Below are positions 30,319 to 50,484 of a DNA stretch of 64,000 nucleotides, piece by piece. This stretch comes from a virus (taxonomy: Duplodnaviria > Caudoviricetes), in IMG/VR virus record IMGVR_UViG_3300020047_016550, positions 9,392 to 73,391 of that record. One strand, 5' to 3'. The number at the start of each line of letters is the position of its first letter. The stretch's first letter is position 1. The notes under the pieces are model-generated. The model was not told the DNA's origin. It searched no databases and saw only the letters and a program-made list of their open reading frames with translations. The position numbers and the translations under genes are program-made.

Positions 30319-30651
30319 TTATATCGGAATTAAATTGTTACAAACGCCAAATACGGGAAGCTCTTCCGGCTTATCCATACATAAACCCAGATATGAATTT
30401 ACAAAAAAATAAAAAGAGGAAAAACGGTCTTTGTCCGTTTCATTAATTTCTGACTGCATAAATTCAAAGTTTTCTGAGCACAAATATTTTTTAATCATCA
30501 TCTGGTAATTAGCCCAGACAAAATTGAATTCATCCCATTCACTCTGTGATACATTGCCGCCGGCCAGCTTTGACTTAAGCAGACAGGCACGTTTGCACAT
30601 CAATGCACAAAGAATACCTTTCAAATATTTTGCTGTCTGGCCTTTTTTCAT
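30319..30651 (-). CDS. Small Cys-containing late protein
   Basis: Tight operon spacing. Confidence 0.65.
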   Translation of the reverse strand: MKKGQTAKYLKGILCALMCKRACLLKSKLAGGNVSQSEWDEFNFVWANYQMMIKKYLCSENFEFMQSEINETDKDRFSSFYFFVNSYLGLCMDKPEELPVFGVCNNLIPI

Positions 30652-31337: not shown

Positions 31338-31338
31338 A

Positions 31339-31893
31339 TTAAAGAGTTTTAATCAGTTCAACATTCAAATCCACACCTTCATAATTTCCGCAACAAAAAG
31401 AAGCTTCTGCCGCCTCTAATGCCAGCCATGCTTCCATGGCCGCTTTTTTACGGTCATTCCCTTTACAGCATTTTTCTTTTTTTGGCTTTATTGCATCTGC
31501 AAAAAGTTCTTCAGTACGTTCTTTTGAAGCACATAACAATGGAAAATCCTCGGGCTCACTTTCAAAATAATCAACCACTACCGTAAGCGCCTGGGTCTGC
31601 AAAATTGCATATATCGTGTATACTCCGTCAGAAAGGCCTTCATATACATCAGAAACATTTACGCAAAGATTAAACTCAAGTCCGTCTATCGCTTCATTAA
31701 CCTGTTCCGTGGTAAGTTCCATTATCTGCACAGCAAAAGCATCTTCATCAGGATAACGGTTCACATAAAAAGAAATCTGGGGACTGCCTTCAGTGAGAAA
31801 AGTTTCTTTTTCTTCTTCGGAAGTAAATGTAAGGGAGAAACAGTATTCTATTTCTTCACAACATTTTGGGCATACTGTTACTGTTCCTTCCAT
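31339..31893 (-). CDS. Acidic Cys-rich late protein
   Basis: Tight spacing; CPKCC, KCC, FCC clusters. Confidence 0.7.
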   Translation of the reverse strand: MEGTVTVCPKCCEEIEYCFSLTFTSEEEKETFLTEGSPQISFYVNRYPDEDAFAVQIMELTTEQVNEAIDGLEFNLCVNVSDVYEGLSDGVYTIYAILQTQALTVVVDYFESEPEDFPLLCASKERTEELFADAIKPKKEKCCKGNDRKKAAMEAWLALEAAEASFCCGNYEGVDLNVELIKTL

Positions 31894-31906: not shown

Positions 31907-34900
31907 TTATTTTTTTGATTCTTTTTCTTTTTTAAGTTCTTCGGCCCGAGCTTTTTTCTTGTCAAATGCTTCAAGAAATTCAAGATATTCTTCCTGATCA
32001 AGCATTTTCCGTGCCTTTGCTTTGGAAAGACTTTTGTAAAAAGTTTCTTTGTTGTAGTCATATTCCCCGAATATGGGGAAAAGTGTTTTCGTGTATATGT
32101 TTTCATATCCGGCCAACGCCGACAATGAACGGATTATCCTGGGCATTCCGGCCGAATGAAACTTCCCGTCTTTTTGGTATTCCGCGAACCATTCACCTTT
32201 TTCCCAGTCATAAATATCTTTGGCTGGCTTTCTGAAATCTTCAAGTACCGACATGGGAGCAATATCAAAAACGGAAGTAACCGTTCCCACGGGATTTGTT
32301 ATCGGAGCGTTCTGAACCATTATTGAATGGATATACGGCTTGATTGTTTTTGCGATTGCCACGTCTTTTGCCGAAAAAACTTCATCTTCATCATCATCAT
32401 CGTCCGGAAGCATGGACTGAACCATCATGTACATGGAAATCAGCATTGCGGAAACAACCATGTGTGAAGCAAATGACCTGGTACGTTCACGCTGGAATAC
32501 CAGAACTTTATCTTTTAATTTACGGTATTCCTTCATTTCTGAAGCCGTTTTTCTTTTTTTATTCCGAAGTTCCCAAAAACGCTCCTGTTCACTTTCTGTT
32601 GCCACAACTGTTTTGTCGGCCCATACCGATTCACGGAAACTCTTTTTCTCTTCAAAAATATCCCGATAAATCCCGGCCATCCCTCCCGCGAATGGAGCCC
32701 TGAATATTCCCTGTTTGTAACGGTATCCGTTAACCACACGTAAATCACCGAACCAGTTTGTCCATACATCCGGCCCCCACCATTTCATTGACAGCATAAT
32801 GCGTACCATCACCATTTTTTTACCGGCGCGCTGTCCGGCTGTTCCGTAATCTCCGATCGCATCATTTATCTTATCCATGTACATTTTAAGCTGTTCAATC
32901 GAAGGAGCTTTATCATTAAGTGCGTTACCTTCGTTATCAAGGGCATTCCATTCTTCTTTCGAAAGTTTTCCGGCAAGCGCCATTGCTTTAAACGCATATT
33001 CTCCGACAGTCCACCCGAACATGGCCATTTTTGAAATAATACCGGCTTTGTCCGAAGTTTCGTAATTCATGGTACCGGAATAATTCTGTTCACCCAGTTT
33101 GGCCATTATTGAATCTATTTTTCCACGGTTTCTTTTTACCGCGTCCATGGACCGGCTTAATTCTTCGGCAGATAATCCGGCCTGTATGCCAAACTCACGG
33201 TTAAGCCATGTCTGTACCTGTTTTTTTTTCATGCCGGCAACCCTTGACATTCCGGTAGCGGTTTCAGCAACCGAACCGTCAACCATTAAAGAAAGTATTC
33301 CTCCAAAAAAGTTAACTGTAGCTCCTTTAAAATTAAACCACATTTTTGCCCGGAAAAAAAGACCTAACGTTTCCTGCATAATTGTCTGGCCCATTTTTTC
33401 AGTAAAGGTTTGTCCTTTTTTTACCTCTGGAGAACTTCCGGTAATGCTTTCTTTTCCCAAAACGTTTGCATCAACGTAGTTCCTGAAAAAAGAAGCAAGG
33501 TTGGTCATGTCTTTAGTTTCTCCGTATAATGTCGCTATGGTACCAAAAAATGCGTTTTCTTCATATTCTGAACGGGTAATCACGTCTTCCATGAATTCAA
33601 TCATTGATTCATACAAATCAACTTTCACTTTTACACCTTTGGGAACTTTGTCATAATCAAAACGGCTTCCCAGCTGAAAATTTTCCTTCAGTGTAAAGCG
33701 CTGCTTTGAACGGTCAAGATTATACATTTCTATTTTTCCGTTATGCACCCTTATGCTTTTTGCTCCTTTTTGGTCAAACGGGAAATCACGTTTTACGGAA
33801 TGGGTAAGCTTGGCCATCTTTAATGCCGTAAGCAGATCGATAACCGTTTTTGTTCCAAACTTTGCATCTATCGGTCTTCCGCGTAAAAGTGCCATGGCTT
33901 CCTCATAAGTTTTTTCTTCCGAATTACCGCCGGTTCCGTCTTTAACGGTTTCCATGCTGTCAGGTAAGGGGAAAAGGTTATCCGAAAGCAGAACGGTTTC
34001 ATTTCCCATCAAAGAATTAACCGATCTTGTATTGTAAACCGCTTCGGTAAAACTCTTTGTTTCTTTGAATATTTCCCAGAAGCCTTTAAATTTTACCGGT
34101 ATGAACGTCTTTTTTTGGCCCGGTATGTATCGGGCATATTTGGGATTATTGTAAAAAGCTTTTACGGTCAGATAAAAATCTTTTGCGGATCCGGCCGGGA
34201 TTTTAGCTTCAGGCTTTAAAACCGGTCTTCCGTTCTTGTTTATTTCGTAAATTTTTGAATAAAATGATTCTTTGGCTTTTTCCCATTTGGATTTAAACAA
34301 CGGACTGTTTTTGGCTATCATCAGTGAAGCTTTTCCGAACAGTAATTCCATTTCTTCTTCAACTCCTTTTTGAAAAACCATTCCCAGGTTGTCTTTCCAT
34401 TTGTTTATTTCATCAATGGCTTTAAGCTCGTTATGGAGTATTTTATTTGCTAAAAAAGCAGCAGCCCCGTTATTTAGATAATTAACGTCGGAAAGTTTTT
34501 TGAAATACTTGTCAAGCTGGTTCATATCTTCATTTCCGACATGGCCGTGGAAATTCTTTTTGGCACCTTCCTCAATTGCTTTTTCAATGATTTTTGTTTC
34601 AAAAGCATTAATCATCTGGGTAAAACGGTCAGTGTTTGCCCAGGCATGAAGATTCATCGTTTTAAAGATATTCAGGTATTCTTCCAGTTCCTCATAAGTA
34701 AGGTCATCGGGAGTCTGGCCGTTATCGCGCATTTCTTTAAAAAGTGCGTTTACCGTTTTTAGCTCGCTTACATAGTTGTCATACTTGATTTTTATTGCCC
34801 GTAAACGGAGCCTTAGTTCAGCAATACGCAAATTGATTTTTTTGTGCTCATGCATCGGAGCCGTATCAAGCTCACTTTTTAATTTTTTGATTTCTTCCTT

Positions 34901-36574
34901 AATGGGATTTACTCCGCGCATGAAAGTTTTTTTCGGGCCTTCCATTCCTTCGCCCGTAATTTCGGCGAATTCATTAAAAGACATCGGACTTAAATCCATT
35001 TCATCAACCGCTTTTACTTCAGCGTTCGCTTCTGCCCGTTTAAATTCTTTGATTATTTCAACCGTTTCATCGTAGAGCTCGTTTTCACCGGTAAAATCAA
35101 CTTCCATTTCCGGAATTACTTTTTGGGCAAATCCGGTTCCGTCGTCAGTAATAAGAAAAGGTTTTATGTACATTCCTTCTATTGTTACCGGCATCCCCAT
35201 TGCACTAAGTATTTTTTTGTAGATACTCAGCTGCATTCCGTGTTTTTCAAACTTGCTTGCTTTTTCGACATTGTTGAATTTACCTTTTTTCGTGTAAGTG
35301 GGATCAAGTTCTCCTTCAGTATCAATGATTGAAGTTTTTGAAAACTTGAAATCAAAAATTTTAACGGCAACACCACGGCCTTTTTTCTTTACCGCAATAA
35401 GGTCAACCCTCGAAACTATCTGCTCATTTACGTCAACCACACGCATTTCAGGTAAAAGAGTATATCCTTCGTTAACCAGATCCGAAACAATATTTTTCAT
35501 TTCGTCAAATATGGTTTTTCCGGCTTCGCGGCTTATTCCGGTAACGGCACTCATGTTCCATATTGAGTCAAAGTCCGTTTTTCCGGACATTACATCTTCA
35601 ATATTTTTTACAAGCTCTTCAATTATTTTATGGCCGTCAGTTCCCGCTTTCGTATTTTTTTCGGTCAGTTTTTCATTATCAAACTGGTCCGAGCCTTCAA
35701 AACTTGTGGAAGGGTTTACGGCCAGAATGTCGGAAGGGCTTTTTGTATGCACTTTTTTGCCGTTGGGCATGGTAATCACATACATTGAATTGGTTTTGTC
35801 GTATTCAAGCGTGGACGAAGACAATTCAATTTTATTTAAGAAATCGGCAACTTCCGCAGAAGCCGATAACGGCATGTATTTTATGACAGAATTTGAGCCC
35901 AGCGGCAATGCAGCTTTCATTTTTGCATTTTCCCACATCCGGGAAGAAAGCATCCTGGCCACGTCTTTATGGTTTGCAATTCCTATGGCATTTTTTACCG
36001 AAGCCCAGAAATCTTTCATCAGGTCAAGAAACTTTTCAAGCTTCGTTCCTTCAAAGTCAAGTTTTGCACGGTCCGATCCGGCAAGCTGTAAAGCGATTAC
36101 CGCACCTTCTTCAGCTCCCAGGGGATGATCTTCCATAAAATCTTTCAGCGCTTTTTTGGAAGGATGGTTTTCGGGAAGATAATCCCAGTAAAGGTGTGCA
36201 TATTCATGCATGAAAACATTCTGGACCGGAGCCGTTTCGTCTATGTAAACGGCATTGCCCAAAGTTGCACCTATTCTGTTTACATCAACCTGACGACCGG
36301 GGAAATGACGGTCTGCAAATTCCTGAAATTTTTCAGGATCATTAAAGATTTCCACTCCTTTAAAAAGGCCTCCCAGTGTTTCGCGGACATGGTTTTCAAA
36401 AGCCATGTTCTTTGAATCTTTTTCTATTCCGTCATGAACGGCAATCCATGAAGCAGCTTCCGCAATGGAAGGAATATCATCGTTAAACGCTTTAAAAATC
36501 TGCATGGCCCGTACTTTTCCGTACTGCATTTCAAGCATTTTCCATTCAGGTAAATTTGTGTTAGGACATCCCAT
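31907..36574 (-). CDS. Giant virion cargo protein with zincin-like and PD-(D/E)xK domains (1555 aa)
   Basis: MGCPN..PEW start typical of crAss-like cargo; HEYAH at 36194-36208; RVDL...IFDFK...QLSIY. Confidence 0.8.
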   Translation of the reverse strand: MGCPNTNLPEWKMLEMQYGKVRAMQIFKAFNDDIPSIAEAASWIAVHDGIEKDSKNMAFENHVRETLGGLFKGVEIFNDPEKFQEFADRHFPGRQVDVNRIGATLGNAVYIDETAPVQNVFMHEYAHLYWDYLPENHPSKKALKDFMEDHPLGAEEGAVIALQLAGSDRAKLDFEGTKLEKFLDLMKDFWASVKNAIGIANHKDVARMLSSRMWENAKMKAALPLGSNSVIKYMPLSASAEVADFLNKIELSSSTLEYDKTNSMYVITMPNGKKVHTKSPSDILAVNPSTSFEGSDQFDNEKLTEKNTKAGTDGHKIIEELVKNIEDVMSGKTDFDSIWNMSAVTGISREAGKTIFDEMKNIVSDLVNEGYTLLPEMRVVDVNEQIVSRVDLIAVKKKGRGVAVKIFDFKFSKTSIIDTEGELDPTYTKKGKFNNVEKASKFEKHGMQLSIYKKILSAMGMPVTIEGMYIKPFLITDDGTGFAQKVIPEMEVDFTGENELYDETVEIIKEFKRAEANAEVKAVDEMDLSPMSFNEFAEITGEGMEGPKKTFMRGVNPIKEEIKKLKSELDTAPMHEHKKINLRIAELRLRLRAIKIKYDNYVSELKTVNALFKEMRDNGQTPDDLTYEELEEYLNIFKTMNLHAWANTDRFTQMINAFETKIIEKAIEEGAKKNFHGHVGNEDMNQLDKYFKKLSDVNYLNNGAAAFLANKILHNELKAIDEINKWKDNLGMVFQKGVEEEMELLFGKASLMIAKNSPLFKSKWEKAKESFYSKIYEINKNGRPVLKPEAKIPAGSAKDFYLTVKAFYNNPKYARYIPGQKKTFIPVKFKGFWEIFKETKSFTEAVYNTRSVNSLMGNETVLLSDNLFPLPDSMETVKDGTGGNSEEKTYEEAMALLRGRPIDAKFGTKTVIDLLTALKMAKLTHSVKRDFPFDQKGAKSIRVHNGKIEMYNLDRSKQRFTLKENFQLGSRFDYDKVPKGVKVKVDLYESMIEFMEDVITRSEYEENAFFGTIATLYGETKDMTNLASFFRNYVDANVLGKESITGSSPEVKKGQTFTEKMGQTIMQETLGLFFRAKMWFNFKGATVNFFGGILSLMVDGSVAETATGMSRVAGMKKKQVQTWLNREFGIQAGLSAEELSRSMDAVKRNRGKIDSIMAKLGEQNYSGTMNYETSDKAGIISKMAMFGWTVGEYAFKAMALAGKLSKEEWNALDNEGNALNDKAPSIEQLKMYMDKINDAIGDYGTAGQRAGKKMVMVRIMLSMKWWGPDVWTNWFGDLRVVNGYRYKQGIFRAPFAGGMAGIYRDIFEEKKSFRESVWADKTVVATESEQERFWELRNKKRKTASEMKEYRKLKDKVLVFQRERTRSFASHMVVSAMLISMYMMVQSMLPDDDDDEDEVFSAKDVAIAKTIKPYIHSIMVQNAPITNPVGTVTSVFDIAPMSVLEDFRKPAKDIYDWEKGEWFAEYQKDGKFHSAGMPRIIRSLSALAGYENIYTKTLFPIFGEYDYNKETFYKSLSKAKARKMLDQEEYLEFLEAFDKKKARAEELKKEKESKK

Positions 36575-36575
36575 A

Positions 36576-39500
36576 TTACATACAATCCATTAAATTTTTT
36601 AACTCCTGGCCGTATTGTCCGGCCGTATCAAATTTAAGCGAAGATAATTTGATTTGCTCAGCTGCCGTTTTAATTTTTTCGGGCCCGTATTCTTTGGCCA
36701 GCTCATTTTCCATCAAAACAGAATTTTCTTCATTAAAATCAAGCGAATTGAATGATTCGGGTATGCTGTAATTTTTTTTACTATTTGACTGATTTAAAGT
36801 TTCTTCATAAACATCTTTTATTGCCTGCATGGCTTTTTCTGCTTTTTCATCACCCACATACTCTTTTCTTGGTTGCCATTTTCCTTCAATCTGAACATTA
36901 TAGTTTTCAATATCTCTACTGCCTATTCCTGCAAAGTTTTTAGTTAGTGTTGGTGTTTCTGTAGGTTCAAATATTCCTATATCTGTTTTATTAACTACTT
37001 TATATTCAATTTGCCAAGCTTCATTTAATCTTGGTTTAACTTTAGAATTAAAATAATCTACACTCCACCCTTCTAATTTACTCCATTGTTCAGCATTTTT
37101 ACCACTACCTACTAATTTATGTAAGGGTTTTGTAACTTCGACTAATACTTTTTCTCCATTCTTACCTTCCCATTCTATAATATCTCCTTCTTTTAATTTT
37201 TTCCAATAGTCTATATGTCCATCAGATTCATATCTTGTAGTTGCAGTTCTTTCACCTTGCTTAATAGCTTCTATTGTAGAAATTGATTTAACATCTGACC
37301 TTTTATTATCATTATAATTAAAAGTCATTTTACCTTTAGCTGAAATAGGTTTTTCTTTTGTTTTTTGTTCAAAGCTATACCACTGTTCAGTGTTTATATC
37401 CCAAACATAAACAGGTTTATTTAACTTAATACCTAATTGCACAGCAGTATTTGTACCTCCTTTAACACCATTATCATCACTATTTAATTTAGCAATAGCA
37501 TAGACAGCATCAGCATTATAAACTTGGTAGTAGTTTCTGATCTGAAGATTCTTCTTTATTGTATCTGTATACTTAGTAAGATACTCTGGTCCAAGAAGAT
37601 CATTTATTTCAGCTTCAGCTTTATCAAGTTGTTCTTGAGTTAGAATAGTAGCACCTTGAATTTGTTTTGAAATTAATCCTGTTTTAGTAGTATTAAGCTC
37701 TGTAACTAATCCAAAGTTATCGAACAGCTCTTGTTGTAACCACGTTGCAAATCTTGTTGGTAATTTTGCTTTCTCGGTAGCAAATCCTGGAGGAAATACT
37801 AGTTTGGAATATCCACTATTGTTTATCCTGGATATCAATTCAGTATTTAATCTTGTAAACTCTTTAAAATCTGAATCTGTATCTGACCATTGACCACCAG
37901 CAACCTGAGTTTTCTTGGTGATTATAGCTAATGCATTTGGATTCCTGTTTCCATTTCTATCTGTCCTGATAATAGCTTGTGTCTGAGATACATTCTTATC
38001 AGTATCAAGCATTTCAGCATTCTCAGTAAAAATGAATCCTGTATCAGGATTATTTGGAGCAGTATCTTTTGTGTAATTAACTTTGGTAATCTGAACCCTA
38101 TCTCTTAGTTGCTTAGAAAGATTTGCATTTCCGGCATCTTTATAGTGTTTATGATTAGTAACACCATATTCTCTACCAATTAAATCCCAATAAGTATCTC
38201 CCCCATAAGATTCTCCTGAATGGTTTACAAAATCTTTCATTAAATTCGTTTTCTCTTTATTAAAATCAAATTCTTTGATTGTTTTCGCTTCACCACGTAT
38301 CGCCAGCGGCTTAGAATTTGCTTTGTCCAGATAAAATACTGTCCACTCTTCACTTTCCGCATTTTCTTTGGCCCTCACAAAACGGCTCTGGCCTTCTTTA
38401 AGCTTTTTGAATGCGGAATCTCCTTTATAGTCACTTTCGTCAACTTTGCTTATCATATCAGCCATTCCGGGATTATAACGTATCACGTTTGCTATCCACG
38501 TAAGTTCTTTTTTATAGCTCTCATTTTTTTTGTAGGCATTGACAACCGCTTCTTTTCTTTTACCGAATTCAATCCGCGTCTGATCATCAATTATGGAAAA
38601 ATAACCTTTTGCTTGTACGGACTCCGACATTCCGTTGTTTAAAACCTGGTTTGCCAGTAAAATCATTTTTTCTTCAAAAGGAAGCCGGCCGAATGCTTCT
38701 CTTACTGAATTTTCATAGTTTATGTCACCCACCCGTTTTTTATAATCGGAACTCAATGTTACCGAATCGGAAGTTTTTCCGATATCAATGCTTAATGCTT
38801 CTTTTAAAATTCCTGACTGTTTTTGCACAATTGCTATGGCCTGCTTTTGTACAGTTTCCGCATCAAAGTCAATAACGGCTGATTTGTCTATGATGTCGTA
38901 AATGGTTTCATAAGTTGATTTGATAAATCTTGAAGGCATGGCTTGAAGTATATTCCATCCGTTAAAAGAAAAAAACGGATCTATGGCCATTGCATTTCTT
39001 TGCATTAATGAATAACCCATTTTGTTTCTTTCAAGAATCGGACTTGTTTCGAATCCCGGCCAGTCAAATTTTTTCTGGAGTTTTACCATGGACTCCCGTA
39101 TTTTCAAAAGCTCCCAGGGCTGAAACGTAAAACTTTTGGTCATTTTGATAATCGGATTTAATACAAATTGGATATCCGATGAAACATTCATAAGTTTTGA
39201 AAGATGAACCAAAGCCATTAAACGGTCAATCGGTTTATCTGAATTAACATCGTATTGAGTAAGCTCAAACTTGTAAACATTGAAATTTCCGTCATAATTG
39301 TATGAGTCATTAAGCTCTTTGTTTTTTCTTAATAAATCGTCAATTTCACCGTCAATGATATCTTTCAATTCTTCATTTGAAAGCATGCTTTGTCTTTTGT
39401 TGAGCTTTTCATAGATTTCAGTAAAGAACGGAGATTGCATATAACGGATGACTTCTTCGTTTGAACTTCCCGACATTCTCATTACCGAAGCCAGGGTAAT

Positions 39501-42500
39501 GGTATCCGGTCCCATACGCAGTTCATCCATGCCTTGTTCTTTTGCATTGTCTGTCGCGTGGTTAAGTTTGTTTGCCAGCGCAAAAATAACGTCGTTGAGT
39601 TTTTTTGAAATTACTCCGTTTACTTTTTCCAGGTTTAAAAAGTTTCCGGAAGTAGGAGTGACTTTTCCTTTTAAATATTTTAAAACAGGAAAATTGAATT
39701 TGTGTTTTATGCCCTGTGAAAGAATATAAGTAAAAGCGGCATTGTCGTTTGCCTGAATGGATATTCCCGTTTTACCGTTGGAATTTGCATCCCATGAAGC
39801 AGTCATATCAACAAGACTTAACTGGCTTGGTTTTTCTTTGTTTGACGCACCCCGTTCGTTTTGTGCAATCTCAATATCTTTTTGCGTGTCAATGGGAGTA
39901 GTAAGATATTCGTGGTTTCTGGGTTTTCCGTTTAAAAGCGTTTCGTATTCGGATTTCATTGCTCCGATTATTTTATTGCTTAACGCTTTTTTCTTTTTGT
40001 CTTCAAGCCGGCGTTTTTCTTTTTTCATTTCAACGGCCCGTTCATCTGAAACTTTAACGGATTCAGAATTTAAAAAACGGTCAATTTTATCTAAAATATC
40101 CTGATCTCCTTGTGTAAACGTAACAAGTTTTCCTTCTTTTGTACGGTATTCACCCATTACATGCCGCTGGTCTCCGTCATTGTCGGAACCGGACATTTTT
40201 TGTGTTCCGGGATCCACTATCATCATGTTTTCCATGTCGCCCGTCGTAAATCCGGCAATTTCAACAAGTGAAACCGAATGAAGCGCGGAAGTCGGGATTC
40301 TTTCAATCAATACCTTGTCTCCTTCAACACGAAATTTTCCGTTTTCTTCAAAAATAGGATTTGTTCGGAATTCTCCCCTGTAGTTTTGGGCTTCTTCCAA
40401 CGTAGAGAATGTTTCACCGGCAATGTATCTGTTTGCAAATTCAGCGGGCATGATTACTTCAGGAAAAAGCCAGTGTTCTTTTCCTTCAATGTCTTTTACC
40501 GCTTTTTGGTTTTTACCTCCGTAAGTACGGAGTTTTATTCCCAATGCAGGAACTTCGGTAAGAATGTTTTTGTTTACTTTGGTATCAATCGCTTTTTTCT
40601 TTATTTCGGAACCTATGAGGGTATAAATTGTTTTTAATGCATCACGGTCAAACATCCAGTTATATCCCGGAATTTTCATTTTCTCGATAACCGGATTATA
40701 ATCACCTTCTTTTTGTCTGTTGATTACACGGTCTTTTGCATTTTTTCCTTCTTTTAAAAGTTCTTCCTGTAACCGTTCGGTTTCAATACGTGCAATTTCA
40801 TTTAATGAAGATACAATTTCCGGGCCGCTGTCCGTAGGTAAAAAATATGATATGCCCTGTGTGGGCATTTTACCTTCGGTTTCTTCCGTTGACTGTCTTT
40901 GGTCTTGCTGGACATAATAAAATTCATTATTCAGAATTTCTGTTTTAACCGATTCCGGATTTGAATCATTGTCAATTAAAAATGAAGCATCAGCCCATCC
41001 GTTTTTTTTCTTTAATGCTTCGAAAAATGCATTTTTTTGTTTTTCAATACGTTTTTCATTCAGTTTTCCTTCTTTGCTTCTTTTGGCTCCCGTCGTAAAT
41101 GAAATCTGATCAATTTCTTCGGCATCCATTAAATCAAGAATGTTGAGAAGAGTGTAATCAGGCATACCTCTTTCTTCATTAAAATTTGCAGCAAATTCAG
41201 CAAATTCACGGCTTATAAGAACGGTATTTGTTTTAATATAGGTATGGGCACCCGTAGCTAAATCCATTTCATTATAAATCGCTTTTATTGATCCGCCGAA
41301 ATCAAAAGTGTTTCCAAACGATTTGTTTATTTTTGAATTCTGTACTGAATTGATAATCGTGATTCCGTCAGCCAGCTCCGCTTTCATCGGTAAACCCAGG
41401 CTTTCAAAAAATGAAGAGTAAATCTCCGAATCAATTTCAAAATCCGGAATAATAAGCGCTTTCTGTGTTTTACCCATTCCCCCTTCTATTTCCGTATCGG
41501 GATTTACCCCGGAAGCCCTCATTTCGCGTTTTACTTTGTCGATAAAACCTTTGGAGTAATTTTCAGGATTTCCGTAATAAAAATGATCCGTAAATATTTT
41601 GTTCACGGCAAAAGAATAAGCAAACTGTAATGCAAGGTCATTGGCGGTAATTCCGTTTACCGTAAGTTTATTTAAACCTATTTTGCTGCTTACCGTGTTG
41701 AGCATTTTCAAATAAGTATATGAATCCTCCAAAAGTTTTTCTTCGGTGATTTCATTGGCTATTTTATTTATTTCGGGATTTTTGCTTTTCTGTAAATCCG
41801 AAAGTATTTTTTTAGATTCTTCTATTCCGTATTTTTTAACCGGAACATAAATCTGTTTTCCCTTATCGGACATTACCTCGACAAGCTGGCCCGTTTTTCC
41901 TTTTCCGAATAAGTTCTGGAAATCATTTCCAAAAAACATTATTAAATGATTCAACATGATGTCGGAACCTTTCTGCTGGTCCGCTTTCATGTTTCTGTTA
42001 CCCTGGATTAAAGCCCCGTCAAACAAAATCATTGTTCCTTCAGGGTTTCCGTTTTGAAGATAATCATTCCTCATTACGGTTCCGTTTTCCAGCTCATAAT
42101 CAAAACGCCTGTTTTCTTTTATTTCATCGGTTTTGATTTTGTGGGTAAGCTTGGATATCGTTGAATTGTATTCTCCGGTAGTTTTTAAGTCTTTGTTTAC
42201 GTCCTGGTATGAAGAAGCCAGCTGGTCCGGTTTCGGATCTAAATTCAGTCTCGCAATGTTGTCAATCTGTGGACTGATTACTTTTCCCGTAGTTGCATTT
42301 ACCGTTTGTTTTGTCAGAGAATCACGGACTTTTTTTGCCGACAATACGGGCTCGTCTATTTTAATTTTGTCATATATGTTGTAGTAAATATTAGTTCTGG
42401 GCATTATAAACGGAGCGTCAATTGCATATTGCATGAGATAAAAATGTGCAAGATTTTCAAATCCTTTGTAAGTAGGCTTTTTGCCTGTTTCAATTGACAT

Positions 42501-43841
42501 TGAGGATTTATTGTATTCTTTCATCATTTCCGGCGGTATCCCGGTTAACGTATGGGCAAACATAAGCTCCATGTTTTCGTATTCAAGAAGCTGTCTGTAT
42601 ATGACTTCGGTTCTTTTGTCTTTTTGGGCTTCATCCAAAAACTGAAGCGCAATTTCTTTTGCTTTTTCAGGATTTGAAGCTACGGCCGAAACGTCTTTCA
42701 AAAAGTTTTTGTAAGTCATTTCAACTTCCTGGTTCCCATAATTTATTTTCACTTTACGGGCCATGAACTGGGCAGGAAAACTTTGTTTTGCATAACTGTT
42801 CAGTTCACCGATAATCCATTTTCTTTTTTTCTCAAAATCAGAATAGGCATCTTTCATTTTTTTTACCGCTTCTTTTTTGTTTTCACGGTTTTCAAGTATG
42901 TCACTAATGGTTGAGCCCTGAATGAATTTGGTAAGGTTTGATGCTATTACGAATTTATTTTCGAGTGCATTGCTCAATCCTATCTGATAAGTGCCGTAAC
43001 TGTTTTCAATTACCCGGACGGCCGGAACCATAATCATTGATCTTACATATTGACGAAGGGAAACTAAAAGTTTGTTTGATGCATTTTCTGAGATTTCTTT
43101 TACCCAGGTGCCCAATTTTTCATTGTAGCTGTCCGCGGCCATAAAATATTCTTTTACGGATTTCTGCGTCATCTGAACGTTTTGCACATAATCAGAAATC
43201 ATCCTTAAAAGATAATCCGGAGTAACGTTCATTTTTTTGGCAACCGGGCTCCAAAGCTTATGCATTTTTTTGGTATCACCGTCAAAAGTTTTTTCATCAA
43301 AAGCCTGCGCCACACTTTCTTCCATCGCTTCTTCCAAAGCTTCGTTGTTGGTTTCAAATATTTCGGCAATGGCTTTCATTTTTTCTTTACGGGACAAAAG
43401 ACTTTCATTTAACGAAGCTTCCGTAAAACTTTCAAATCTTGACGAAATCATTGAATGGATCGCGTTAAAGTATTCAATGATTTCGTTATTGTTGAGTGAA
43501 TTGGGATTCACTTTTTTATCCATGATTAATTTTCTGGATATTTTTTCGGCCATACGGTAATTGTCGCTTTCATCCAGAAGTTGTGCTTCGGACATAATCA
43601 TGCTTTCATTGGCATCAATGATGTTTTTTACTTTTTCAGAAAGCTGTGTACGGTTTTTTTTAATCGCGCTGTTTATTTCATTAAAAAGCTGGCTTTTGGT
43701 AACAACTCCTTCGTTGATGAAATTTGCAATATTTTCTGATGCATAAAGCTCGTTTAGGATATCTTCATAAGAAGTAAAGCCTTCCTTTACGGAAAGCTTT
43801 ATAAATTCTCTTATCTCATCTATCGGAACGCATTTTTTCAT
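36576..43841 (-). CDS. Virion-packaged two-barrel RNA polymerase polyprotein
   Basis: RIPT....S then GSDNDGD catalytic loop (40170-40184); size and position as in crAss-like phages; start MKKC overlaps upstream stop (ATGA). Confidence 0.85.
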   Translation of the reverse strand: MKKCVPIDEIREFIKLSVKEGFTSYEDILNELYASENIANFINEGVVTKSQLFNEINSAIKKNRTQLSEKVKNIIDANESMIMSEAQLLDESDNYRMAEKISRKLIMDKKVNPNSLNNNEIIEYFNAIHSMISSRFESFTEASLNESLLSRKEKMKAIAEIFETNNEALEEAMEESVAQAFDEKTFDGDTKKMHKLWSPVAKKMNVTPDYLLRMISDYVQNVQMTQKSVKEYFMAADSYNEKLGTWVKEISENASNKLLVSLRQYVRSMIMVPAVRVIENSYGTYQIGLSNALENKFVIASNLTKFIQGSTISDILENRENKKEAVKKMKDAYSDFEKKRKWIIGELNSYAKQSFPAQFMARKVKINYGNQEVEMTYKNFLKDVSAVASNPEKAKEIALQFLDEAQKDKRTEVIYRQLLEYENMELMFAHTLTGIPPEMMKEYNKSSMSIETGKKPTYKGFENLAHFYLMQYAIDAPFIMPRTNIYYNIYDKIKIDEPVLSAKKVRDSLTKQTVNATTGKVISPQIDNIARLNLDPKPDQLASSYQDVNKDLKTTGEYNSTISKLTHKIKTDEIKENRRFDYELENGTVMRNDYLQNGNPEGTMILFDGALIQGNRNMKADQQKGSDIMLNHLIMFFGNDFQNLFGKGKTGQLVEVMSDKGKQIYVPVKKYGIEESKKILSDLQKSKNPEINKIANEITEEKLLEDSYTYLKMLNTVSSKIGLNKLTVNGITANDLALQFAYSFAVNKIFTDHFYYGNPENYSKGFIDKVKREMRASGVNPDTEIEGGMGKTQKALIIPDFEIDSEIYSSFFESLGLPMKAELADGITIINSVQNSKINKSFGNTFDFGGSIKAIYNEMDLATGAHTYIKTNTVLISREFAEFAANFNEERGMPDYTLLNILDLMDAEEIDQISFTTGAKRSKEGKLNEKRIEKQKNAFFEALKKKNGWADASFLIDNDSNPESVKTEILNNEFYYVQQDQRQSTEETEGKMPTQGISYFLPTDSGPEIVSSLNEIARIETERLQEELLKEGKNAKDRVINRQKEGDYNPVIEKMKIPGYNWMFDRDALKTIYTLIGSEIKKKAIDTKVNKNILTEVPALGIKLRTYGGKNQKAVKDIEGKEHWLFPEVIMPAEFANRYIAGETFSTLEEAQNYRGEFRTNPIFEENGKFRVEGDKVLIERIPTSALHSVSLVEIAGFTTGDMENMMIVDPGTQKMSGSDNDGDQRHVMGEYRTKEGKLVTFTQGDQDILDKIDRFLNSESVKVSDERAVEMKKEKRRLEDKKKKALSNKIIGAMKSEYETLLNGKPRNHEYLTTPIDTQKDIEIAQNERGASNKEKPSQLSLVDMTASWDANSNGKTGISIQANDNAAFTYILSQGIKHKFNFPVLKYLKGKVTPTSGNFLNLEKVNGVISKKLNDVIFALANKLNHATDNAKEQGMDELRMGPDTITLASVMRMSGSSNEEVIRYMQSPFFTEIYEKLNKRQSMLSNEELKDIIDGEIDDLLRKNKELNDSYNYDGNFNVYKFELTQYDVNSDKPIDRLMALVHLSKLMNVSSDIQFVLNPIIKMTKSFTFQPWELLKIRESMVKLQKKFDWPGFETSPILERNKMGYSLMQRNAMAIDPFFSFNGWNILQAMPSRFIKSTYETIYDIIDKSAVIDFDAETVQKQAIAIVQKQSGILKEALSIDIGKTSDSVTLSSDYKKRVGDINYENSVREAFGRLPFEEKMILLANQVLNNGMSESVQAKGYFSIIDDQTRIEFGKRKEAVVNAYKKNESYKKELTWIANVIRYNPGMADMISKVDESDYKGDSAFKKLKEGQSRFVRAKENAESEEWTVFYLDKANSKPLAIRGEAKTIKEFDFNKEKTNLMKDFVNHSGESYGGDTYWDLIGREYGVTNHKHYKDAGNANLSKQLRDRVQITKVNYTKDTAPNNPDTGFIFTENAEMLDTDKNVSQTQAIIRTDRNGNRNPNALAIITKKTQVAGGQWSDTDSDFKEFTRLNTELISRINNSGYSKLVFPPGFATEKAKLPTRFATWLQQELFDNFGLVTELNTTKTGLISKQIQGATILTQEQLDKAEAEINDLLGPEYLTKYTDTIKKNLQIRNYYQVYNADAVYAIAKLNSDDNGVKGGTNTAVQLGIKLNKPVYVWDINTEQWYSFEQKTKEKPISAKGKMTFNYNDNKRSDVKSISTIEAIKQGERTATTRYESDGHIDYWKKLKEGDIIEWEGKNGEKVLVEVTKPLHKLVGSGKNAEQWSKLEGWSVDYFNSKVKPRLNEAWQIEYKVVNKTDIGIFEPTETPTLTKNFAGIGSRDIENYNVQIEGKWQPRKEYVGDEKAEKAMQAIKDVYEETLNQSNSKKNYSIPESFNSLDFNEENSVLMENELAKEYGPEKIKTAAEQIKLSSLKFDTAGQYGQELKNLMDCM

Positions 43842-46800
43842 AATGAACACGGATTTCTTTTGTTGTCAATATTAGCAATTATTTCCTGTTTTTTCCTGGC
43901 TATTTCCTTTTTTTCGGTTTTGGCCTGTTCAATCATTCTTTCAAAACGTATGTCAATTTTTTCTTCTTTGGTAAGTGTAGGATCCGTTTCGGTTTCTATC
44001 ACAGAACCCGTTTGCGGATTTTTGGTTTTGGTCTGGAGTCTTCCGTTTTCGGTAATCTTTCTTGAACCTAAACCTTCAGAAATATTGCTTACCAATTTTC
44101 CGGCCGGATCACGTACTTCAATTTTATCTCCATAAGGTGTGCCGTCTTTTCTTTTTGCTTCGTCAAAACGGTTCCATTCGTTTTTTGGAACATAGTTCAA
44201 AGTCACCGGTAATGATTCTCCGGGTTTTAAGTCTTTGTATTTTTTTGGCAGTTTATAGGAAACCATTTGTAGTTCACGGCCCGAATTGTCAACTACCGCA
44301 ATCCGCGTTTCTCCGTTTTTTTGTGCCAGGGCCTTTACTTCCATTTTATACTGGCGTTTTCCTGTTTTCTGAAAAACATCGGCCAGCTTTTTTACGGTAG
44401 TTTTAAAACGGTTTGCATGGCTTAGTGCGTTATGTTTTTCAATGTCCGTTTTTCCTTTTATTTTTTGTTTTGATTCAGGTAATGATTCTTTTTTTCCAAG
44501 ATTTTGGTAATAATCATTTACGGCATCAATATCTAATCCGAATTTTTCAGAAAAATTTATTCTTAAGTCTTCAATTTCTTTTGTTAAATCAGTTCTGTTA
44601 TTTTCTTCTTCAATATTTTTTTTCGTAATTCCTGAAGGAAATTCATTTACTGTTTCAATAATTAAATCAATGACATCTTGTTCATCATATCCTGAATGGC
44701 CCTCACTTCTTAATTCTTCCAATAGGTAATCCGAAACAAAAGTATCTATTTTGACTCCTTTTTCTGAAAACCATTTTTTTTCAGATACATCGGTTACGTT
44801 TTCTTTTATTTCTTTTAATGGTTTAAATTTAGTTTTGAGGATATTTGACATAATTATTGATTTCAAAGATCTTGAACCGTTTTTTTGTGCATTTTTTGAA
44901 ATTTCATAATTATAATCTTCAATAAATTCAATGACTTGTTTTTTTGTTTTTGGAGTTAAAACATTGTTCCACCATACATTTATCATGTTTGGTATTTTAG
45001 AAGCTTTTTTTGAATGGCTTATGGTATGTTTTGATGATTTTTTTTCTGTGCCTTGATTATCCGTGAATATAATCTTTTCATTTTCAAAATCTATTTGAGC
45101 TTTTGTTGAAGAAGTTAATTTGTATCCTTGATTTTGTTTTGATTTAGATGATTTTGTATTTACAGTTTCCGTATTTGTTTTTTGAGCCGGTGTGCTTGTT
45201 TTGGTAGATGGTGTACTAACGGCTTCGGCAGCTGGCAATTTCGTCCCAATTTCTTTTTTCCCACTTAATATTTCAACAACATCATTTTTAAATTTAGATA
45301 ATCCATCTCTGTTTATTACATTACTATCAGTTTGCTTGTAATCAGCCGATTTTAATTCAAAAATAGCCTGTTCCATTTCAGGAGTAATATTATCCGTAAG
45401 TTCAAATATTACAGAAGCACCTCCTTCTCTCCCGAAAACATCACTTCCAGACATCGCAACTTGAATGTATTGTTTTTTATTTTTACTTTCAAAAACTCGA
45501 TATTTTGCACCCGTAGTTCTATAATGTTTTTTATCCGTAGTCTTTTCACCTTCAAAATTAACGTAAGTAAAGTCCGCAGATGTACGAGGGTCGGTATCAA
45601 ACGTCCTCATTTCATTTTCACCCCCTATTGTGTTTTCAATTTGTGTAAGTCCAGATAATGTAGAGTTCGATATTACTGCATTTTCATTAATTATAGAACC
45701 TTGATTTTGTTTTTCAACCGTTGCCTCACCCACTACCGTTTCAGCAGGCGAAACAACAGGGGATATTTCACCCCCGTTGTCAACCGTAGTTTGCTCAACT
45801 ACGGGGGGCACAACTTCAGGTGAAACAGTTTCAGCCGAAGATTCTTTTTTCTGTTTTTTGGATACGGGAACAACCATATATTCACCCGGTGAAATTAAAG
45901 TTCCGTTACTCCATACTTCATTTTTTATTACCCGCGTTACAGAACCTTCCGGCAAATCAGAAGTTGCATCAGGTATAATTTTTGATTCTTTTGAAATTTC
46001 ATTTGAACTTTTATATGCCGGTATTTCATACTCAGTACCGGCCAGGTCTTCAATTTCCGCTTCATATATTTCTTTTTCCGCACCCTCAAGCTCAGAAGGG
46101 TTGACATTGGCCAGCCATTTAACTTTGCTTTCCATGTTCACTTTTTCATTTATTGCCATGGCCAAAGCATCCTGGGAATTTTTCACGGTTTCTTTTTCTT
46201 TGTCGGCTAAAACAAAAGGATCGGTCTCAGGAATTTCTGCTTCCGTTTTTTCAGTTTCGGGCTCTGCTTTTTTTGCGGTTACTTTTAATGAAGGTTTTTT
46301 ATTTGCGTTTTTGTCCCTGTTTGCGATTTCATTCCCGGCAATGGCCAGAAGTTCTTTTTGATGTTTTAAATGCTCCTGGGCCCCATGTAAACCGTTTCCG
46401 CTTATGGTTTCTTCACCGTTTACGATATCCCATTTAAACATATCATAGTCAGGAAGATTTTTCTCGCTTTCGGTTTTAATCAAAAGTTCTAAATCGGCAA
46501 TATTTTTTTTGGTTGTCTCAATAAGGTTTTCAACTTTGTCAATGGTAACTTCCGGCATTGTTTTTTTTACCATTGCTCTTTCTTTCTGCAAATGTCCGGA
46601 TATGGCCACACTTTCAATTTCCATCAGTTTATCCCGTTCTTCCTGATTCATGGCCATTCTTTTTTCACGGGTTTCTTCAACGGCCTGTTGGGTGCCTGTT
46701 TTTTTCCCGTCAGGATCTGATGAACCCATGGCCATACCCATTAAAAAAGTTCCGGCCAGAAAGAATGTGGCATCACTTACATTTCCAAACTGCTGTTTAA

Positions 46801-48883
46801 TCTGGCCCATAAATTCTTTACCGTTATCCGTTTCGGAATACATCTGGTAAAGAGTCTGCATTGTTTCTTCCGCTGTTTCACCGGTGCCCTGTCCAATTTT
46901 TCGGCCTACATAATCATTGACTATTTTCAATGTCGCATTTTCGGAATTTCCTCCAAAAAACTTTACTATTCCGGGAACAAATTTTCCAAGTTTTGTTCTC
47001 TTTGAAAGTGAATCAATAAACTGGGAACCCATTTCACCTGCAACACCGGAACCAAAATTAAGTTCTCCCGCCTGGCGCTCAAAAATTAATCCACCGGTCT
47101 GGTATTCAATTCCCGCTTTTAATATTTTGGCCATTCTTGTATCACTTTCCAATACCCATTTTGCCGCAGTTCCCAATTTCGGAGTTTTGGAAGCAATTGT
47201 TAATCCGGTTTTTGTCAATCCGGCTCCGGTAACCGCCGGCCCGATTATTCCCGTTGTCACGCCTATCATTTCGGCAACGGATTCCGGAGTCCATGATTCA
47301 TAAGGTTTCGAACGTTCGTCAAGCATTTCTTTTACATCCGGGCTGGCAGATGAATAATCGGCTCCGGTAAAAATAAAAGCATCCTGTAAACGGCGCGCGC
47401 GTTCCTGATCCGTTGCTGTTACAATTTTAGAACGGGAACCGACTGATAATTGTAAAGGATCTCCTCCTACGGCAGTATTCCATGCTGCTTTTAAAAATAT
47501 TGCTTCGGGTGATTCAGTTTTCCCGATAATCGGATTTCTGTTGGCCAAAGCCACTGGTGCAAGGTCTTGGATTATTTCAATGTTTTCCTGAAGCTTCATC
47601 CATTTTTCGGTTCCTACCAATTGCCTTAACTGATTTCGGCCATGAAGATATAATTCCGTTAACGGATTTATATCTGAATCTTTTTCATATCCGTTCCAGG
47701 AATTAACCCTGGGATCAATTAATTTTTGAATGTCGGCTTCCGGATATCCAAATTCCTGAAGTATGTCTTTTGACTCCTGATATTTTGACAACATGTATCC
47801 GGTTAACTTTTGACGGTCTGAAAGATTTTCAAAAGGACTGGCCGATAATTTGTATTCTTTTACTTTGTCAGAAGCATATTTTTCGGGATTTAAGAAAAAC
47901 TCTTTCCGGCCTTTAAATTCACTTATTTTTTTATCAATTTCTTTCAGTTTTAATTCTTTTTCTGTTTCGCTGTAATAAGGATGATTAAAGACTTTATCTC
48001 TTTCTGAAGTAAGACTTTGAATTTTTAAATCAATTTCGGAATTGCTTTTTTCAGAAAGGTCTTTGTAATTTTTAAGCTGCGTCGACATTATTTTTTTTGC
48101 CGATTCTATTTTAAGTTTTTCTTCAGAAGTAAGTGAACGTTGTTCTTTTTTTGCTTTTTCTTCTAAAGACAAAGCTTCCCGATAAAAAGGCATGGCCGCT
48201 TCTACTTTTTTAATCGCGCCGAATTCTATTTTTTCGGTTGGGGAAAGAGCATATTCGGCAATATTGTTTACTGTTGTTATTGCATGATCTTTTAATGATG
48301 TTTTTTTGTAAAAAGCATCTTTGGCAAAACCGACGATTCCCATTTTGTAATCATCCATTTCTTCCGGCAACTTAGCTTTTAATGGAGTAACCGTTGGCTT
48401 GTATTCTTGGTAATACGGTTTATTTTTTAAAACTTCTTCTTCTTTTTCTTGTGATTCACGTCTTTCTTTCGCCTGGGCCAATGCCTGTTTGTACATGTCG
48501 TCACGCCATTTAATCATTTCTTCTTCACTGGGTAAGTCAAGAAGGCTTTGATTATTTTTTACGGCAAATTCTATGGCATTTTTTGGATTATCAATTTTGG
48601 CCGTAGTAACGGTTTTTGGCATTACTTTTTTAGAAAACGTTTCAAAGTCCGGAACTTTTGCTTTTCCCGTTTTTGAAATTTCATCATAAAGACCTTTTAC
48701 GAATTCCGGATTTGACAAGTTTTCCTTAAACAGTTTTTCATCAACCTGGGGAAATTTTGACGAAAGATTACGCTTTGAAAAATCAAGTATTTTACCTACA
48801 TAATCTTCATCGTAATCTGACTTATAAGGACCGGGAAACGCCGGCTTATTTACCGGCGGATCTGTTACGTTTTGATTTTCCAT
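43838..48883 (-). CDS. Giant virion cargo/ejection protein (1681 aa)
   Basis: Gly-rich hydrophobic segments mid-protein; directly upstream of vRNAP. Confidence 0.75.
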   Translation of the reverse strand: MENQNVTDPPVNKPAFPGPYKSDYDEDYVGKILDFSKRNLSSKFPQVDEKLFKENLSNPEFVKGLYDEISKTGKAKVPDFETFSKKVMPKTVTTAKIDNPKNAIEFAVKNNQSLLDLPSEEEMIKWRDDMYKQALAQAKERRESQEKEEEVLKNKPYYQEYKPTVTPLKAKLPEEMDDYKMGIVGFAKDAFYKKTSLKDHAITTVNNIAEYALSPTEKIEFGAIKKVEAAMPFYREALSLEEKAKKEQRSLTSEEKLKIESAKKIMSTQLKNYKDLSEKSNSEIDLKIQSLTSERDKVFNHPYYSETEKELKLKEIDKKISEFKGRKEFFLNPEKYASDKVKEYKLSASPFENLSDRQKLTGYMLSKYQESKDILQEFGYPEADIQKLIDPRVNSWNGYEKDSDINPLTELYLHGRNQLRQLVGTEKWMKLQENIEIIQDLAPVALANRNPIIGKTESPEAIFLKAAWNTAVGGDPLQLSVGSRSKIVTATDQERARRLQDAFIFTGADYSSASPDVKEMLDERSKPYESWTPESVAEMIGVTTGIIGPAVTGAGLTKTGLTIASKTPKLGTAAKWVLESDTRMAKILKAGIEYQTGGLIFERQAGELNFGSGVAGEMGSQFIDSLSKRTKLGKFVPGIVKFFGGNSENATLKIVNDYVGRKIGQGTGETAEETMQTLYQMYSETDNGKEFMGQIKQQFGNVSDATFFLAGTFLMGMAMGSSDPDGKKTGTQQAVEETREKRMAMNQEERDKLMEIESVAISGHLQKERAMVKKTMPEVTIDKVENLIETTKKNIADLELLIKTESEKNLPDYDMFKWDIVNGEETISGNGLHGAQEHLKHQKELLAIAGNEIANRDKNANKKPSLKVTAKKAEPETEKTEAEIPETDPFVLADKEKETVKNSQDALAMAINEKVNMESKVKWLANVNPSELEGAEKEIYEAEIEDLAGTEYEIPAYKSSNEISKESKIIPDATSDLPEGSVTRVIKNEVWSNGTLISPGEYMVVPVSKKQKKESSAETVSPEVVPPVVEQTTVDNGGEISPVVSPAETVVGEATVEKQNQGSIINENAVISNSTLSGLTQIENTIGGENEMRTFDTDPRTSADFTYVNFEGEKTTDKKHYRTTGAKYRVFESKNKKQYIQVAMSGSDVFGREGGASVIFELTDNITPEMEQAIFELKSADYKQTDSNVINRDGLSKFKNDVVEILSGKKEIGTKLPAAEAVSTPSTKTSTPAQKTNTETVNTKSSKSKQNQGYKLTSSTKAQIDFENEKIIFTDNQGTEKKSSKHTISHSKKASKIPNMINVWWNNVLTPKTKKQVIEFIEDYNYEISKNAQKNGSRSLKSIIMSNILKTKFKPLKEIKENVTDVSEKKWFSEKGVKIDTFVSDYLLEELRSEGHSGYDEQDVIDLIIETVNEFPSGITKKNIEEENNRTDLTKEIEDLRINFSEKFGLDIDAVNDYYQNLGKKESLPESKQKIKGKTDIEKHNALSHANRFKTTVKKLADVFQKTGKRQYKMEVKALAQKNGETRIAVVDNSGRELQMVSYKLPKKYKDLKPGESLPVTLNYVPKNEWNRFDEAKRKDGTPYGDKIEVRDPAGKLVSNISEGLGSRKITENGRLQTKTKNPQTGSVIETETDPTLTKEEKIDIRFERMIEQAKTEKKEIARKKQEIIANIDNKRNPCSL

Positions 48884-48885: not shown

Positions 48886-50484
48886 TTATTGAGTTAAATC
48901 TTCTTGATTTCCTTGATTGTTTATGTAATTGGGAGTATAAATACTTGGAGAGTTTTGTTTATTTTTTTCAGAAGATTGTTTTCCGTTATTTTGATTTCCG
49001 GCATTACTTTCAATAATTATCTCCGTATCCGGTAATCCGTATTGGGGAGTTGTTATTGCTGCTTTTTGTCCGATAAATTGTTTTTCATAACTCATTACCG
49101 AATTATTGGTTTCATTCCCCTGAAAATAAACAACCGCATTACCCGATAAAAATTGTTGTTTCATTAATTCTTCTGCTTCTACAATACTTTTTACTCCGAA
49201 AGCCTGTTGATATTGCTGCATATTTTGAAAGCCTAATGCGTCAAGAAATGACTTTCTGATTGAAGGCTCAATTTCTGCCGTGGCTGAATAACCTAAATAT
49301 AATTTTCCGTCCGGCCCTTTAAATCCTTGGTCATTAAAACGCAAAATCGGAATTGATTTTGTAGTAGCCGGAGTAGTTATCGGATATAATTTTTTTTGTC
49401 CGTCAGGCATTGTAACCTGAATAAATCCTTTCTGGTTTGGCATTACGGTATATTGTCCGTTTTGGCCTTTTGGTAAATTATTAAATACGCTTAATTCTTT
49501 TCCATTTATCGTTGATAAAGGTTGTTTACTTAAAATGTTTGTAAAATATGGATAAACACCTCCTTCGTTTTCTCCTTTTTTTGCCTGCATTGCAAGCTGG
49601 GCTTTCAACCCCCAGTTATCGTCTTTTGAATATTTATAATCGGTAAACGGCAATAATTTATCAGTAAGATAATTCATTTTTGCCATTTCTTCATTACCGT
49701 ATTGATTTATTAAAAGTTCTTTTAATTCAGGATTTTCATCTTTCCACAATTTTTCCCATTTAAAACGGTTATTGCTTTTTAAAGCCGTTGACATGGCTTC
49801 CATTGCGTCTTCCCTTGTTACTTGTACTTCTTGGATTTTAGTTCCTTTGATATCTTTTGTTATATCATTTGAACCTACTGTTCCCGCAATTTTAGCCAAT
49901 TCTCCTTCGTAATTGAAATTATCTATACCCATAAAAGTAAATTCTTTTATAAGTTTTTCAGGGCCTTTTACCATATTGCCGGCTTCATCATAAACAGGTT
50001 GGGTATATTGTTCCCCGTCAGTGTTTCCGTATTTACGGTAATTTTCAACCTGCGTAAAGTAAGACTGGATATCCGGATCGTCTTTCATTTCGGGATTTTT
50101 GGCAATAAAATCCTGTAATGCTTTCGCTTCGGCATCAAATCTTGTGGCCCTCCGGATTATGTCGTTGTTCTGAAGCTCATTTGTCATCTGTTTATATTGC
50201 ATGTAAGCCATCGGGTCTGTTTGCCAGTTGGGATTGGAAAGAATATGTTCACCGATTTTTTTTACCGTTTCGATTGAATAGTTTTTCAGTTCTCCCGCAT
50301 CGTATTCATTGTTGACGTTGGCAAATTTTAAATCATCTGCCATCATTTTAACTTTTGCCGCGGCATCTGCCTGTTGGCGCCTTTGTGATTCAGCCTGCTG
50401 CTGGCGCATACCGAATGCGGCATTCCAGTCATGTTTATATGCCAGTCCGACTTTACCGCCGAATTCTAAAATTGGTTCTGCCAT
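48886..50484 (-). CDS. Virion cargo protein (532 aa)
   Basis: Helical, Gln-rich N-terminus, no Cys; synteny. Confidence 0.65.
   Translation of the reverse strand: MAEPILEFGGKVGLAYKHDWNAAFGMRQQQAESQRRQQADAAAKVKMMADDLKFANVNNEYDAGELKNYSIETVKKIGEHILSNPNWQTDPMAYMQYKQMTNELQNNDIIRRATRFDAEAKALQDFIAKNPEMKDDPDIQSYFTQVENYRKYGNTDGEQYTQPVYDEAGNMVKGPEKLIKEFTFMGIDNFNYEGELAKIAGTVGSNDITKDIKGTKIQEVQVTREDAMEAMSTALKSNNRFKWEKLWKDENPELKELLINQYGNEEMAKMNYLTDKLLPFTDYKYSKDDNWGLKAQLAMQAKKGENEGGVYPYFTNILSKQPLSTINGKELSVFNNLPKGQNGQYTVMPNQKGFIQVTMPDGQKKLYPITTPATTKSIPILRFNDQGFKGPDGKLYLGYSATAEIEPSIRKSFLDALGFQNMQQYQQAFGVKSIVEAEELMKQQFLSGNAVVYFQGNETNNSVMSYEKQFIGQKAAITTPQYGLPDTEIIIESNAGNQNNGKQSSEKNKQNSPSIYTPNYINNQGNQEDLTQ

Follow-up and report, generated by a model that had tools for sequence, protein, structure and literature searches.

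How megadalton cargo leaves the crAss-like phage in an ordered fashion, and how the RNA polymerase (RNAP) packaged with it becomes active, are stated open questions (PMC10172136; bioRxiv 10.1101/2020.03.07.982082). The locus analyzed here raises a narrower one: what joins three giant cargo proteins whose only cysteines lie at the ends that face one another? We examined a stretch of 64,000 nucleotides (hereafter the window) from a complete 73-kb virus record (IMGVR_UViG_3300020047_016550, positions 9,392 to 73,391). An earlier note, made from the letters of this stretch, had proposed that disulfide or metal links make the three proteins into an ordered chain.

The cargo block of the window

The block consists of three genes on the minus strand, as are all features given below for the window. 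The first giant cargo protein (1681 aa, 43838..48883) is followed by the virion RNAP (2421 aa, 36576..43841) and the third giant cargo protein (1555 aa, 31907..36574). The three share exactly four cysteines in 5,657 aa, in agreement with the earlier note's count of four terminal cysteines in about 5,660 aa. These are Cys1679 of the first protein, at position -3 from its end (codon 43847..43849), Cys4 and Cys2420 of the RNAP (codons 43830..43832 and 36582..36584), and Cys3 of the third protein (codon 36566-36568). Each lies at a junction-facing end, and none of the three proteins has an internal cysteine, the observation on which the earlier note had staked its proposal. Cys1679 and Cys4 would be the C-terminal and N-terminal halves of a first clasp, and Cys2420 and Cys3 those of a second. 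The spacing of the genes was also as previously read, with an ATGA overlap at 43838-43841 between the first two and a 1-nt gap at 36575 between the last two. The list of open reading frames holds an alternative GTG start at 43850, which would lengthen the RNAP by 3 residues and leave its cysteine terminal regardless.

Two small cargo proteins of 532 aa (48886..50484) and 642 aa (50491..52419; one hydrophobic segment at about 127-145) stand outside the chain and, as the note had said, contain no cysteine at all. Beside them lies the gene for the Crassvirus muzzle protein (52416..56795; PF25731, E 4e-60), which has 10 cysteines and fixes the identity of the locus. At the cysteine share of the 19 non-virion genes of the window, 1.29%, about 72 internal cysteines would be expected in the three giants, and 0 were observed (P ~2e-32). 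That ejected proteins are poor in cysteine is already known; the finding is the placement of the few that are left. Given four cysteines, the probability that one falls in each 5-residue junction window is ~1.5e-11.

Several lines of evidence support the note's identification of the block as crAss cargo with an RNAP in the middle. Muzzle, ring and major capsid genes of crAss type adjoin it (PF25731, PF24228, PF25702, PF23898). Residues 1036-1532 of the RNAP match a profile of 45 crAss RNAP cores that was made without the window's own protein (E 4e-11 at Z=1e6), and the middle gene encodes both motifs of a two-barrel RNAP, the catalytic DxDGD at residues 1220-1224 (40170..40184) and RxP upstream at 1181-1183. 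A zincin HExxH motif lies at residues 123-127 of the third protein (36194..36208), as described for phi14:2 gp65. Some relatives have the flanking proteins fused to their RNAP: the 1681-aa protein matches the N-terminal third of two of these, P0021 and P0023 (E 1e-22 to 2e-25), the 1555-aa protein, from residue 50-60 onward only, matches 12 of them in the C-terminal part, and both map onto the fused proteins in the order first-RNAP-third. On this evidence, and for the first protein by its position, the block is the equivalent of phi14:2 gp67-gp66-gp65 (gp66, PDB 6VR4), with crAss001 gp47, gp50 and gp49 as the corresponding first, middle and third members. In both phages the genes occupy the same site, behind the muzzle gene and the genes for two small cargo proteins, and share with the window their order, the central RNAP, the zincin in the third protein and, as read from the genomes, the terminal cysteines. 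The window differs from them in that its catalytic motif reads DNDGD.

The block is very diverged. The best BLAST E value for the RNAP against the phi14:2 or crAss001 block was 0.002, pairwise BLAST of the flanking proteins against phi14:2 gp65 and gp67 gave no similarity, and the RNAP found no relative when used directly as a query against viral contigs. Searches for PDB relatives of gp65 and gp67 likewise returned none. The window represents a deeply diverged lineage, and its nearest relatives display every fusion state. Mass spectrometry has placed the phi14:2 and crAss001 orthologues in virions, and by analogy the three giant proteins of the window are most likely packed in the head and injected.

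Other features of the block include SLOG/DprA-like (phrog_768) and DUF7831-like accessory domains in the C-terminal region of the RNAP, upstream of its terminal cysteine (36579-38204), and a weak exonuclease match in the 1555-aa protein past the zincin motif (phrog_298, E 3e-5, residues 302-470; 35165-35671). Two small cysteine-rich genes lie directly after the block (30651-31893), with 10 and 8 cysteines clustered at their N-ends and no Pfam match. Scans for promoters and terminators in the cargo block gave results at chance level.

Facing cysteines across crAss-like loci

We collected 80 loci by their RNAP core, together with reference genomes, and dereplicated them at 70% core identity into 51 clusters. 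The start codon was set, blind to cysteines, as the first ATG past the upstream stop. Five loci with an interrupted or truncated RNAP (L036, L041, L042, L055, L086) and two with an intron-split one (L026, L033) were excluded from the counts; read by eye, the latter two obey the rule. In the 51 clusters, 151 of the 153 ends that face a junction have a cysteine within 12 residues. This holds for 23/25 C-ends of the first protein (the sole cysteine of the remaining two lies at -18 and -32), 28/28 N-ends and 50/50 C-ends of the RNAP, and 50/50 N-ends of the third protein. Outer ends have one in 1/63 cases (0/17 and 1/46), and the sole exception is L045, in which a further giant protein, the fourth, comes next and has a cysteine at its N-end. 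None of nine small-cargo ends has a cysteine, and the background is 0.54% per window of this size. Conservation across crAss-like cargo genes, which the earlier note had put forward as a check, is therefore borne out, and the facing cysteines are, at the level of the encoded proteins, a real and order-wide feature of Crassvirales. Protein termini are often unconstrained, and cysteines might survive there by chance in proteins otherwise purged of them; the contrast between facing ends (151/153) and outer ends (1/63) refutes this reading, to which we give next to no weight.

The reference phages follow the same pattern. In phi14:2 the distribution of 1-2-1 cysteines is identical to that in the window, and crAss001 has the same terminal cysteines plus one additional internal one. 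In phi17:2 the middle protein is a 517-aa non-RNAP that retains cysteines at 4 and -2, which indicates that the connector is independent of its payload. The single giant gene of phi13:2 showed no cysteine in the 1869 aa examined and speaks neither for nor against the rule. All 65 proteins retrieved with the N-terminal profile have a cysteine within their first 12 residues, which is weaker evidence since the search favours cysteine.

A few loci depart from the common layout. Four-member chains are found at L045:13405-20471 and L042:15588-20610, where the third protein has cysteines at both ends and the fourth starts with one. Related cysteine-containing genes interrupt the block at L036:10867-16349 and L042:6209-15518, the last RNAP cysteine of L042 lies 288 aa before the end of that protein, and these two loci, with their interrupted RNAP regions, fit the rule only loosely. 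In L026, L033 and L041 the RNAP gene is split near the catalytic core by inserts of about 1 kb, probably self-splicing introns. The TAG-recoded Suoliviridae genome cr272_1 (L004) encodes giants with 39 and 21 cysteines in which the terminal pair is still present, so the purging of cysteines can be relaxed without loss of the clasp. The first small cargo proteins of p-crAssphage (gp47, L093:22141-24714) and crAss002 (gp30, L094:15548-17221) each have a single cysteine near the C-end (at -2 and -8), and the gene after each lacks an N-terminal one.

The cysteine codons could in principle be a nucleic-acid signal for readthrough, frameshifting or coupling, or the cysteines could serve protein ligation or splicing, or carry lipid. 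The genes are tightly spaced, and TGT accounts for 141 of the 151 terminal codons, both of which suit a signal in the nucleic acid. However, the junctions fall in all three reading frames, the first cargo gene lies on the opposite strand in crAss001 and cr85_1 with its cysteine kept, and five loci retain their cysteines with a small gene inserted within a cargo junction. The excess of TGT is close to a genome-wide bias toward codons ending in T (0.89 at internal cysteines; 0.85-0.92 for AGY, GGY and CGY), and the window itself has TGC at one site. Cysteine positions vary from 2 to 7 at N-ends and from -1 to -11 at C-ends, which does not fit ligation, inteins or lipoprotein signals, with their Cys1 chemistry at the N-terminus. 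We consider this group of explanations very improbable as a whole, and readthrough, frameshifting and obligatory coupling are ruled out by the frames, strands and inserted genes. Tolerance of inversion, inserts and any frame indicates that the rule acts on the protein and not through recoding; the translational coupling noted earlier in the window is thus not a requirement for it. As for the inserted genes themselves, the one in L015 encodes a ferritin (PF00210), those in L017, L043 and L077 look similar, L014 has a DUF5856 gene, and the junction insert of phi17:2 is a SLOG gene.

Gene fusion and the two halves of a junction

The behavior of the cysteines when genes fuse is informative about what they replace. 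Fusion of the first gene to the RNAP gives a protein that lacks the N-terminal cysteine in every case (0/15) and retains the C-terminal one; cr55_1 and L097 are fused in this way and obey the rule. Where the last two genes are fused, as in p-crAssphage gp45/gp44 and L095, a cysteine pair occurs at the first junction only, and crAss002 gp32/gp33 joins this pattern provided that the start of gp33 is moved to Met33. The fully fused P0025 has 0 cysteines in 4619 aa. All four fusion states are consistent with the rule, and the fusion points in 11 fused relatives contain no cysteine. A quick maximum-likelihood tree built from 46 RNAP cores requires at least 8 changes between split and fused states, and the cysteines track them. 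The four-member clade of the window (support 100) holds all four states, although its long branches leave the internal branching uncertain. Together, pairs that are kept where genes are split and absent where they are fused point to disulfide clasps that stand in place of a peptide bond. Since fully fused forms exist in nature, a redox-released link is not universal, and the life cycle can run without a redox-cleavable one; the fully fused forms may be cut by a protease.

The same data bear on which cysteine pairs with which. The two ends of the RNAP could be joined to each other, like ends of identical subunits could pair, or the cysteines could anchor cargo to portal or ring proteins. Tail and ring proteins do have many cysteines and several copies of the cargo are present, yet a C-terminal cysteine occurs only where the next member has an N-terminal one, fusion removes both, and fused RNAPs with one terminal cysteine could not cyclize. 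Any of these pairings appears highly unlikely to us.

Each half of the proposed head-to-tail junction has features that may suit docking. In the alignment, Cys3 stands at the start of an N-terminal domain of the 1555-aa protein some 47 residues long (36434..36574), for which AlphaFold gives a confident three-helix model (pLDDT 89). Searched as a profile, the domain gave 102 matches, all at N-termini, and a second N-terminal domain family behaved alike, with 59/59 matches at N-termini and none internal. Members of both families occur on second or third proteins, at times in tandem; the N-terminus of the window's RNAP matches neither. On the C-terminal side there is a poorly conserved tail, often acidic and probably helical, that ends in the cysteine. 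We infer from these alignments and models that the N-terminal domain and the cysteine tail are candidate docking halves. Complex prediction with the RNAP tail (45 aa) and the N-terminal domain (52 aa) gave no answer (score 0.03) and speaks neither for nor against docking. Fold searches of the domain against PDB and BFVD gave nothing significant (the best row was a cr108_1 protein, TM 0.78 at E 1.0), comparison with UBA-like three-helix bundles reached a best Z of 4.4 with an rmsd of 3.6 over 49 residues, and sequence searches of Pfam and PDB returned no match. An analogy comes from the modular synthases of polyketides and non-ribosomal peptides: in these, docking domains made of a short C-terminal helix and a small N-terminal domain replace the linker where genes are split, and so set the order of the modules. 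Their docking is non-covalent, has no cysteine pair, and is unrelated in fold and function.

A probable disulfide clasp and the ejection of cargo

The one solved precedent so far is a two-protein link in an unrelated cyanophage. In the cyanopodophage A4, cryo-EM shows the C-terminal helix of gp27 inserted in a cleft of gp26, with a disulfide between Cys1715 and Cys5 (PMC12002296). In the A4 genome the genes for gp27 (1717 aa) and gp26 are adjacent, with the sole cysteine at -3 and at 5, respectively, and the pair is retained in Pf-WMP3, Pf-WMP4, CHP58 and TR020 (Saffermanviridae). A4 (A-4L, Saffermanviridae; gp27 in PDB 9K3A) is like the window in having co-oriented adjacent genes, large ejected proteins and a lone cysteine at facing ends, and the junctions of the window likewise place a sole cysteine at the upstream C-end and the downstream N-end. 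The C-terminal tail of gp27 also ends in a short basic-N-P-C-x-hydrophobic run that resembles the end of the 1681-aa protein. Unlike the crAss blocks, which chain three or four proteins, A4 has a single clasp that joins two, no RNAP, and neither of the N-terminal domain families. Searches of A4 gp27 and gp26 against crAss cargo with phmmer and the N-terminal domain profile gave no significant match; with no homology detected, A4 serves as a precedent for how a clasp works and not as a member of the family.

From the conserved pairs and the analogy with A4, we consider it likely that the terminal cysteines form inter-chain disulfides. Alternatively, the two cysteines could be ligands of one metal ion (Zn or Fe), with extra ligands from histidines, acidic residues or a second pair. 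Such a link would work in the reducing cytoplasm and would permit joining during assembly and in anaerobic hosts, and ferritin-like genes lie within several junctions. We regard it as improbable: there is a single cysteine per end and no CxxC, histidine occurs in the first 45 aa of 29/74 N-ends and the last 30 of 15/69 C-ends with no conserved histidine column, and the A4 equivalent is modeled as a disulfide. The earlier note had left disulfide and metal side by side. Its ordered head-to-tail link is supported by the conservation and the A4 geometry, and between the two, a disulfide is more probable than a plain metal link.

A disulfide could be real and yet be a mere packing or stability staple in the folded pre-ejection core, with the proteins leaving separately. 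Reduction requires a reductant, and the periplasm is oxidizing only toward Dsb protein substrates, which suits a staple. So does the A4 account, where the bond that accompanies the gp27 helix in the gp26 cleft adds stability to a folded pentameric core and a chain reaction is merely suggested (PMC12002296). Against this, the crAss pairs have a strict N-to-C polarity that matches the order of the fused polyproteins, and their exchange for a peptide bond at several independent nodes suggests that continuity of the chain matters. The position of a staple on the surface would be free, and a bond oxidized in the virion would last into ejection unless reduced. We therefore think a staple alone unlikely, and the best overall explanation, to which we assign a probability of roughly two in three, is a portable clasp at each junction, a terminal disulfide that joins the 1681-aa protein, the RNAP and the 1555-aa protein in place of a peptide bond. 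That the clasp serves ordered co-ejection, and not packing alone, we hold to be an even call.

We hypothesize that a cargo protein docks by its C-terminal tail onto the N-terminal region of its successor, often a small helical domain, and that during head assembly, in the reducing cytoplasm, no covalent bond would yet join them. The terminal cysteines would oxidize after lysis, and purging of the others, as in N4-like ejected proteins, would allow only the intended pair to form. The clasp would then set stoichiometry and order, with unfolded proteins exiting the tail sequentially. Reduction in the new host may free the RNAP, which is the weakest step. Searches of the complete genome for a phage thioredoxin or an Erv oxidase (Erv1) found neither, and the hosts of the gut members are anaerobic; both points count against the clasp. 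We speculate more tentatively that a portable connector under redox control, which evolution can exchange for a peptide bond, allows Crassvirales to make a post-translational polyprotein of 5,000-9,000 residues that might pass the tail in a fixed N-to-C direction and be unclasped by reduction, which would free and possibly activate a self-inhibited RNAP, and that the device recurs in unrelated podophages.

Published work on related virions can be set beside this proposal. The crAss001 virion contains inter-subunit disulfides elsewhere, which favours the proposal, and its RNAP cargo is not resolved in the structure (PMC10172136); phi14:2 gp66 (PDB 6VR4) was crystallized alone, in the presence of reductant and with its termini unmodeled. 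In the published model for crAss001 the cargo passes the tail partly unfolded, gp45 N-to-C, in an order that comes from mutual interactions, and a head-to-tail clasp would supply an ordering interaction of this kind. Ejection proteins of Schitoviridae (N4 gp50-52, DEV gp71-73) are cysteine-free and cross the periplasm (PMC11445570). They share the near-total depletion of cysteine with the window, and differ in that no cysteine is kept, the RNAP is a single-subunit T7-type enzyme and there is no clasp; the window retains four cysteines and encodes a two-barrel RNAP.

The published accounts of phi14:2 and crAss001 cargo that we searched do not mention the terminal cysteines, and we found no description of the pattern in Crassvirales in a literature search whose reach took in few subscription papers. 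The rule has practical uses. It predicts the order of the chain despite gene rearrangement, as for gp47-gp50-gp49 in crAss001, and it picks out the members of a chain in genomes that lack annotation. Start codons can be corrected with it as well: the annotated start of crAss002 gp33 (L094:26243) is probably 32 codons early, and a start at Met33 puts a cysteine at position 3. Finally, the rule suggests a more general device, of which the A4 disulfide would be one example. A separate cysteine motif was seen in L098-L101, which encode Saffermanviridae gp28-like ejection proteins with a CxxC near the C-end, at a distance of about 20 residues; its two cysteines are probably ligands in the peptidase domain of these proteins.
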